From contig OZ220691.1 in assembly GCA_965116475.1 (NCBI GenBank), positions 320,001 through 384,000 on the forward strand: a DNA stretch of 64,000 nt, read 5' to 3'. The position numbers and the translations under genes were made by a program. The notes beneath the pieces were generated by a model. The model saw nothing but the letters and a program-made list of their open reading frames with translations, searched no databases and had not been told where the DNA came from. The first letter of the stretch is position 1; the number at the start of each line of letters is the position of its first letter. This document shows, piece after piece, positions 24,780 through 25,136 of this stretch. The stretch is from Gemmatimonadota bacterium. Lineage in GTDB: Bacteria; Gemmatimonadota; Gemmatimonadetes; Palauibacterales; Palauibacteraceae.

Positions 24780-25136
24780 TCAGGCTGGAGGAGGGGCTCT
24801 GGGACCGCTCCCGCCGGGCGGGATCGGGCGGCGTTGCCAGACGTTCGCGGTCGGGGTGTCGAGGCTGGTTTCGGCTACCGGCGACAGCTCGATCGGAATC
24901 AGGGGCGGGAACCCCACCGACACCGTGCGAGCCAGTTGGCACAGCAGGTGGCTGTGCCCGGGGTCTCCGTGCTCGCCGGGTTCCCCTTCGACGTGCACGA
25001 CGGCGTTCGCTGCTCCGGCTTCCAGCACCGCATCCACCGCCGGCAGCAAGGCGAACGCCACTGCCTGCAGGAGAACGATGGCCAGAGTGCCGAACCGGCG
25101 AAGGTCCCGCAGCTGTCGAGGAGGAATGGGCTTCAC
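24780..25136 (-). CDS. DUF2946/CruR-like regulatory upstream ORF with C-terminal RAPP arrest motif
   Basis: About 118 aa from GTG 25136: basic N-terminus, hydrophobic segment, HVEGEPGEHGDPGHSHLLCQL, Pro-rich linker, ends GPRAPPPA-stop, 156 nt upstream of the receptor. Confidence 0.8.
   Translation of the reverse strand: MKPIPPRQLRDLRRFGTLAIVLLQAVAFALLPAVDAVLEAGAANAVVHVEGEPGEHGDPGHSHLLCQLARTVSVGFPPLIPIELSPVAETSLDTPTANVWQRRPIPPGGSGPRAPPPA

Follow-up and report, generated by a model that had tools for sequence, protein, structure and literature searches.

A family of leader peptides in Gemmatimonadota may couple metal sensing by the nascent chain to the expression of zinc-type importers. In the window (the whole stretch of DNA analysed, 64,000 nucleotides), a leader ORF with the sequence marks of translation and selection heads an operon for a ZnuD-type TonB-dependent receptor and a His-rich lipoprotein (Table 1). 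Judged by its sequence, it is very probably a real arrest leader, and it is probably metal-responsive; if it is, the balance tilts modestly toward zinc as the main metal. The complete reading that we prefer is a co-translational off-switch of the CruR type that acts on an importer of divalent metal, Zn(II) being the likeliest; its probability is slightly below even. So far, the only demonstrated cases of metal sensing by a nascent peptide are two copper systems; in the present family, the same design stands before importers of zinc type, so that both the other-metal reading and metal selectivity become directly testable.

Table 1. Positions of the leader unit and neighbouring features in the window
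Feature	Position	Strand	Remarks
His-rich lipoprotein, 164 aa	21878..22372	(-)	14 His, LSAC lipobox; conserved partner gene of receptor
TonB-dependent receptor, 738 aa, ZnuD-like	22407..24623	(-)	ATG at 24623; best PDB and NCBIfam match ZnuD
Leader-receptor spacer, 156 nt	24624..24779	(-)	candidate Rho-dependent termination region, by analogy with CruR
Stop-proximal hairpin CCGGG...CCCGG, short, weak support	24756..24772	(-)	close group
Leader ORF	24780..25136	(-)	118 codons, GTG to TGA; remote DUF2946/CruR-like RAPP uORF
RAPP arrest motif (R113-P116)	24789..24800	(-)	two codons ahead of TGA
Putative metal site	24927..24995	(-)	H48-x-E50 ... position 57 ... H61-x-H63-x-x-C66-x-x-69-R70
Hydrophobic export/anchor segment, predicted	25023..25094	(-)	residues 15-38, PxxDAxLE at end; hydropathy
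Promoter-like site	25195..25223	(-)	TTGACT (25223-25218), 17-nt spacer, CAGCTT (25200-25195); inferred from alignment
CopC-family copper-binding protein	25300..25683	(+)	Pfam CopC 2e-20; divergent from leader

The leader peptide and its family

All parts that a sequence-only reading had listed for the leader, namely a hydrophobic segment, a His/Cys cluster, a 46-residue Pro-rich linker and RAPPP near the stop, could be read in the sequence. The hydrophobic stretch (residues ~15-38) reaches a Kyte-Doolittle 19-mer value of 2.29. The cluster of this copy is H48-V-E-G-E-P-G-E-H56-G-D-P-G-H61-S-H63-L-L-C66-Q-L-A69, with Gly at the family C57 position and Ala at the C69 position; the linker between C66 and R113 includes nine Pro, and P, A and the stop codon come after RAPP, which leaves one residue between RAPPP and the stop. 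An AlphaFold2 model of the leader (pLDDT 79, pTM 0.40) places helices at 6-42 and 63-73, and no ligand geometry was obtained from it.

The leader ORF is not a chance frame. Among 90,448 stop-to-stop frames genome-wide, 325 had a RAPP-like C-terminus and five of these also had a hydrophobic segment; the window leader scored highest, and only one other of the five was gene-like, a CxxC leader at G000:C1:411439-411756. When the upstream regions of 22 close loci, which belong to two families, are aligned, the GTG start and the TTGAC-N17-CAGCTT site are seen to be kept. A strict sigma-70 scan returned no site in or near the leader unit, the promoter-like TTGACT site included, and a scan for intrinsic terminators returned none there. 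A longer ORF from TTG 25223 was rejected, as it overlaps the conserved -35-like hexamer and the GTG alone is conserved. Two further sequencing runs contain 0.98-0.99 of the words of the stretch (one run may be the source of the window) and are identical at codon 57; because both agree across this codon, Gly57 is not an assembly error. In a sponge metatranscriptome, whose contigs come from related strains, a 613-nt contig covers 24297-24903 with 22 differences and spans the leader 3' end, the spacer and the receptor start; such contigs give neither strand nor a single transcript, and there was no cover at 25042-25349.

To describe conservation, 55 close homologs were retained (E<=1, from 105 candidates; 54-100% identity), which are named Candidatus Palauibacter sp. 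or Gemmatimonadales; Atlas clusters were mostly from Gemmatimonadota. H48, H61, H63, C66, Q67, R70 and RAPP are invariant in all 55, and the RAPP leader architecture of CruR and CutF, as recognized earlier, is thus conserved throughout this set. The linker has 46 residues in 54 of the 55 (45-50 in 143/143 examined genomic leaders), and the RAPP motif ends two residues from the stop in 54/55; the 143 genomic leaders carry RAPP (110), RGPP (29) or another motif (4). The reported cluster of four His and one Cys is present in this copy, and just three of the four His are conserved, H56 being found in 37/55; copies with a single Cys are in the minority, as 40/55 carry a second Cys at position 57. 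By the Nei-Gojobori method, dN/dS over 21 close genomic orthologs (22 minus one with a read-through tail) was 0.10 for residues 61-70, 0.11 for 103-118, and 0.25 for 46-71, as compared with 0.81 in the linker. The leader ORF thus appears to be real and under selection, in a pattern that fits two functional motifs spaced by a ruler-like linker, which is neutral in sequence but fixed in length. It should be noted that the loci are mutually related, so that counts here and below overstate independence.

At E<=0.001, a profile search found 260 representatives, and the 150 best-scoring ones were aligned. The family consensus is D35-A-x-L-E, H48-x-E50, C57, H61-x-H63-x-x-C66-Q-x-[C/V]69-R70 and then RAPP, with the motif HxE-x6-C-x3-HxHxxCxx[C/V] in short. 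In these best 150 of 260 representatives, D35 is retained in 141, H48 in 148, E50 in 141, C57 in 145, H61 in 149, H63 in 118, C66 in 149, C69 in 87 and R70 in 145. A wider profile had matches in 239/401 genomes of the phylum (95/147 genera). DUF2946 (PF11162) was the sole Pfam family to match the leader, and the HMM search proposed with the original assignment stayed under the cut-off (9.3 vs 23.7 bits, E=2.5); the model reached E<=0.01 for 14/118 relatives (best 1.7e-4), and one Atlas cluster at 0.96 had DUF2946 on 11% of its members. On sequence scores, the leader family is an unannotated branch, remote kin of DUF2946 (CruR/CutF) and not a member.

The sequence-only reading had described the single Cys as HxxC, or as CxxA in place of CxxC, and had considered that this copy might simply be a degenerate CruR among orthologs that all retain CxxC. 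No close homolog carries CxxC (0/55). C66 corresponds to the leading Cys of CxxC, which is the ancestral form (87/150), so the register here is CxxA. A swap of CxxC for HxxC was rejected: H63 and C69 showed no association in the 150 representatives (65 with both, 53 with H63 only, 22 with C69 only and 10 with neither; Fisher p=0.23), and HxxC does not replace CxxC because 65/150 hold both residues. The same table for the 143 genomic leaders is 12/54/63/14, with a skew that tracks clades. Both C57 and C69 are lost in 2/150 representatives, 14/55 close homologs and 12/143 genomic leaders. The suggested scoring of His and Cys conservation gave His48, His61 and His63 as invariant in the 55 close homologs, with a variable Cys count. 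CxxC and CxxV/T/S/A leaders stand before one and the same receptor type, and in a quick receptor tree, which omits loci with truncated receptors (among them CxxC-bearing L028/L037), the C69 state takes at least six changes and basal receptors of the same type are preceded by CxxC leaders. From these alignments, the single Cys appears to be a lineage loss and not a specificity switch, and the earlier idea that Cys loss marks a new specificity is not supported; the zinc-leaning context is a property of the whole family, not of this copy. Ahead of a single receptor type, the family offers a natural series of leaders with three, two or one Cys. At one further locus, L031 (G133:C1 2236950-2243400), two leader-receptor units stand in tandem, and one of the leaders is without H48 and C57 and has HCH replacing HSH.

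Target genes and sister receptors

The receptor starts 156 nt downstream of the leader stop. Its best PDB match by profile was ZnuD (E 4e-87; OprC 5e-34), and the ZnuD-like nature of the target, as first proposed, is supported by the zinc site. ZnuD of Neisseria meningitidis (PDB 4RDR) has a buried zinc site formed by D99 and H100 (plug), E340 and H499 (loop 6) (PMC4557270), and D200, H201, E383 and H529 of the window receptor align with these four high-affinity ligands (chain offset 14). The four positions are kept in 47, 48, 48 and 48 of 48 receptors; in full-length sets, the four-ligand pattern was found in 38/38 orthologs, 8/8, 6/6 (Asp or Glu first) and 0/26. Against the ZnuD model NF038289, the receptor scored 198 bits (curated cut-off 950), and all that is left of its loop 3 is YGIPGGFVGGH, in which a single His is conserved. 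Substrates of TonB receptors are hard to predict (PMC4557270). The lipoprotein, a candidate periplasmic metal chaperone, matched no family in a Pfam scan; its look-alikes in the Atlas were from Gemmatimonadota and Balneolota, with a weak Big_2 lead (0.83).

Targets were surveyed for 143 distinct leaders at 135 loci, comprising the earlier hits and the 60 best new regions of the wider search (279 matches). The receptor type of the window followed 66 leaders, many of them close relatives, and more distant TonB receptors followed 17. Another 22 leaders head operons for an outer-membrane protein of ~420-450 aa with a ZnuA/AztC-like binding protein and/or a ZnuB-like permease, and 26 precede a receptor type without the four-ligand pattern, often in tandem with a ZnuAB unit. 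The remaining leaders precede the lipoprotein only (2), nothing callable (5) or unclassified genes (5), and three of the last group precede TolC/CzcB/CzcA-like efflux genes, for which an opposite, metal-induced (CutF-like) polarity would be needed. The efflux-type leaders (L142, L145, L139 and probably L155) are without C57 and carry extra His. In the tandem units (L106-L110, L115, L119), the order is leader, outer-membrane protein, ZnuA, ZnuB, second leader, ~790-aa receptor and ~560-aa protein; this receptor is without the ZnuD ligands, and the ~560-aa protein has no Pfam or NCBIfam match. No ZnuA was found in the window's genome (96% complete).

Signs of copper near the leaders are sporadic. 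The divergent CopC gene adjoins the leader in 10/135 loci, all of the window's genus, and is probably not part of the leader unit; multicopper-oxidase genes occur at two loci, downstream in L062 and nearby in L087. In L062 (G123:C1 2388860-2391400), RAPP has become RASP and the receptor is gone, followed by the lipoprotein and a Tat multicopper oxidase; its spacer holds an AT-rich palindrome, TGTAATG-N4-CATTACA, possibly a swap of the leader for a repressor site. The receptor is broken in L032 and L046. A 101-aa Cys-free ribosomal S14 after the lipoprotein (L043:5674-5979) was rejected as a marker of zinc starvation; it is not established as a paralog because it is the only S14 found in its genome (G192). 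The S14 of the window's genome is a 61-aa four-Cys form.

Two more four-ligand receptors are encoded in the window's genome, 63% and 55% identical to the leader's receptor. The former shares a 5-row starred clade with it in the quick tree and sits behind a Fur-family gene (G000:C1:539597-539983) and three palindromes (region G000:C1:539380-542223, L091/L156). The palindrome GATAA-N4-TTATCATT precedes this paralog in 25/27 loci, by a relaxed pattern drawn from those same loci, and 13 of these loci show a Fur-family gene within 1.5 kb. No Fur/Zur-type palindrome that was tried occurred in the leader regions (0/75 and 0/143; 0/143 for GATAA-N4-TTATCATT). Based on box presence at the paralog and absence at the leader regions, the leader may take the place of a repressor that senses metal. 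The two do not exclude each other as a rule, because 11/27 paralog loci carry both the box and a CxxC-type RAPP leader with a 45-residue linker. This arrangement leads us to infer metal repression for the receptor clade, with the leader as the sole control in the window's unit.

The box of the paralog has a centre of 4 nt vs 3 nt in validated Zur sites of C. glutamicum and is otherwise similar to them; it is unlike the probable iron-Fur boxes of the genome. Among PDB matches of the paralog's regulator, PerR was at the top, followed by 3eyy, which we take to be Nur, with Zur lower; by sequence, the regulator belongs to the Fur family and is not nameable as Zur with certainty. A fourth copy of the palindrome (G000:C1:190513-191030) lies 85 nt ahead of a gene for a membrane protein (142 aa) whose CxxxCxxHC motif is presumably MerC-like. 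At L091/L156, the RAPP leader between Fur-family gene and paralog is missing in the window's genome and the four closest loci, unlike their relatives. The second leader of this genome (L092, the minus-strand CxxC leader mentioned above) has a 45-residue linker and heads an operon for an ABC ATPase and a permease, and the third four-ligand receptor (403385-401241) lies ~8 kb beyond it. At L052:3640-4002, a Fur-family gene 68% identical to the regulator of the window's genome is convergent with a leader-receptor-lipoprotein unit. Elsewhere in the window, an ECF sigma factor neighbours a gene of glyoxalase fold that carries CC and ETVCCHA motifs (14998-16132, minus strand), a pair that we assume to resemble arsenic or metal response pairs of the ArsI/CadI type. 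Two exported proteins with Ig-like and leucine-rich repeats (11918-13450, minus strand; 27571-31557, plus strand) presumably represent the eukaryote-like repeats typical of sponge symbionts.

The proposed switch and its alternatives

A C>G bubble at ~24920-24640 begins in the linker codons and runs into the spacer, with Pro codons accounting for part of it. Spacers were C>G in 64/75 loci (mean skew +0.12), as compared with 49% of 136 co-directional control spacers of the genome (-0.006 +/- 0.14), and the first 78 nt were C>G for 123/143 leaders; the skew of the window spacer (0.17) is equalled by 14% of control spacers. Rho is encoded in the window's genome. For the stop-proximal hairpin, an alignment of 25 close sequences had 84.8% of its cells paired, on three measures 10-14 of 500 shuffles were equally high, a slid control was equal on covariation, and the mean z over 75 loci was -0.8. 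The stall codons did not pair with the receptor RBS (mean z -0.2; 1/21 below -1.5), and anti-SD wiring was not found; when the ribosome footprint was blocked, unpaired probability changed from 0.38 to 0.52 at -14..-4 and from 0.51 to 0.40 at -20..+10. Pairing of GGSG codons with the segment after the stop was also rejected, as it is not family-wide (mean z -0.3; 11/75 below -1.5).

In the proposed switch, a ribosome would stall on the leader RAPP with P115/P116 in the P/A sites, as suggested by CruR and RAPP biochemistry. When metal is scarce, the stalled ribosome would shield the C-rich RNA of linker and spacer from Rho, and transcription would proceed into the receptor gene. When metal is present, H48, E50, H61, H63 and C66 (plus C57 and C69 where kept) would bind it, the 63-73 helix and the loop would fold, and the folding pull would release the arrest; the ribosome would then terminate two codons later and Rho would stop transcription in the spacer. 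The one-Cys state would be tolerated drift of a His-centred site. Since an importer should be off when its metal is ample, the CruR logic is our best guess for polarity, and by this analogy a CruR polarity via Rho is reasonably probable. The ribosome exit tunnel accommodates ~30-40 residues. If Pro115 occupies the P site, the position toeprinted for CruR (PMC12992588), C66 to H48 would lie 49-67 residues from the PTC; ligands past the exit tunnel fit the cytoplasm as well as the Sec exit, and the extracytoplasmic sensing first suggested would be one of these two options.

The identity of the metal is the first point on which other explanations differ. The same arrest switch may be tuned to Ni, Co or Mn, or to several metals, with the receptor importing that metal. 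The leader site is rich in His, Glu and Asp and can dispense with Cys, His-only CutF-like clusters adjoin HupE/UreJ Ni/Co genes (PMC9973294), the leader-associated binding proteins also match MntC models (87 bits), the paralog's regulator is not firmly Zur, and three leaders stand ahead of CzcCBA-like genes. However, the receptor retains the exact four-ligand ZnuD site, the best model of the binding proteins is the zinc-specific AztC (128 bits, cut-off 350), and no nickel or cobalt gene was seen among the downstream proteins scanned; we consider this alternative unlikely, though far from negligible. An ordinary copper-sensing CruR that lost Cys in this lineage, with a copper-importing receptor, would agree with the copper specificity of both studied DUF2946 leaders, with the ancestral CxxC, with the CopC gene in 10 loci and with the two oxidase loci. 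On the other hand, CruR requires both Cys (PMC9426467), whereas this clade drops Cys and retains His; the receptor has no Cys and scores 101 vs 472 on the copper-receptor model, CopC adjacency is limited to one genus, and neither OprC, PCuAC, SCO, YcnI nor PepSY was present in the 48+24+32 downstream proteins scanned. Copper is thus improbable as the signal. The four-ligand ZnuD match, the ZnuA/B-type operons and the boxed sister receptor place the non-copper case on the targets.

Two further explanations concern whether metal is sensed by this leader at all. RAPP peptides commonly monitor secretion (PMC10987492, PMC10951233), disulfides are invoked in the CutF model and all targets are exported proteins, so a force or redox monitor (SecM/VemP- or disulfide-type), in which Sec pulling or periplasmic oxidation frees the arrest and the His cluster is structural, has something in its favour; but every identified target is of metal-transport type, and the 12/143 single-Cys leaders, in which no internal disulfide is possible, still keep H48, H61 and H63, which makes such a monitor quite improbable. 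Slightly less probable again is a decaying sensor, with the ORF retained only to provide a constitutive stall or anti-termination, and control by metal shifted to the boxed paralog. Loss of two of three family Cys is indeed rare (2/150 representatives), the genome has two more four-ligand receptors, and decayed leaders or units exist (RASP in L062; L032 and L046 as above), yet dN/dS is low over the site and lowest over residues 61-70, and H48, H61, H63 and C66 never vary among the close homologs.

Returning to the zinc switch that we prefer, a broader form of it would make the whole family a zinc-sensing arrest attenuator, the first for a non-copper metal and the main control of zinc uptake phylum-wide (239/401 genomes), acting on ZnuD-type receptors and ZnuAB-type operons in place of a Zur box and with a His-centred site that works with one Cys. 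We hold this form tentatively, as rather more likely to fail than to hold. If it is true, the present copy would be a natural mutant that separates metal binding from disulfide-driven release.

Comparison with known systems

Among the systems compared, CruR (Bp2923, Bordetella pertussis) is the closest counterpart: Rho ends transcription within a C>G bubble and a spacer of 162 nt, the export signal is dispensable, and 45 residues separate the Cys motif from RAPP, with +/-2 tolerated (PMC9426467); its RAPP arrests in vitro, with a toeprint that has Pro in the P site (PMC12992588). Like CruR, the window leader is the first gene before a TonB receptor and has a predicted export signal and a C-terminal RAPP, the spacer is of similar length (156 nt vs 162) with a C>G bubble running from linker into spacer, and the linker (46 residues from C66, 43 from position 69) compares with 45 +/-2. 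Unlike CruR, the window leader and its 55 close homologs are without CxxC and have extra invariant HxE and HxH, the leader is under the Pfam cut-off, and it belongs to another phylum. The genes downstream of CruR are BfrG and PepSY_TM, whereas a ZnuD-type receptor and a His-rich lipoprotein follow here; in contrast with CruR-type copper operons, the family targets are ZnuD-type, ZnuA/B-type, of the other receptor type, or efflux.

In CutF of Rhodobacter capsulatus, an SD-masking stem-loop is opened and a detoxifying oxidase is induced; CutF needs its signal, and its model invokes disulfides (PMC9973294; bioRxiv 10.1101/2025.02.05.636593). Both CruR and CutF sense Cu (PMC9426467, PMC9973294). 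By sequence, the window leader appears to share the design of CutF, in which metal is sensed by a nascent chain that is exported and has a Pro-rich stall; unlike CutF, its target is an importer, and no stall-codon/RBS pairing was found. CutF-like clusters with Cys, His or mixed sites have been described, and non-copper (Ni, Co) members have been proposed (PMC9973294); the main text of that paper has no mention of zinc, and the three small supplement files searched contain no Gemmatimonad, ZnuD or ZnuA. RAPP uORFs that bear a signal are a general feature ahead of TonB receptors in Gram-negatives (PMC12992588). Nine source-data rows of that paper name a zinc-regulated receptor behind a RAPP uORF, its main text does not mention zinc, and no Gemmatimonad or Longimicrob appears in the parts of the source-data files searched. 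Unlike the RAPP/RGPP uORFs of this survey, whose downstream genes encode ~400-500 aa, the window leader precedes a 738-aa receptor of ZnuD type (PMC12992588). Unlike ZnuD itself, this receptor has an N-terminal carboxypeptidase-regulatory-like domain and is without the His-rich clusters of loop 3. In the literature on arrest peptides, mostly outside subscription journals, neither a paper demonstrating a zinc-sensing arrest peptide nor a description of the window leader family was found.

Thus, CruR, CutF, RAPP arrest, the proposal of non-copper His-rich members (PMC9973294) and RAPP uORFs before TonB receptors (PMC12992588) are already known. What our analysis adds is the definition of the family, its phylum-wide spread, its zinc-leaning targets, the absence of repressor boxes and the observation that Cys loss is not the switch.
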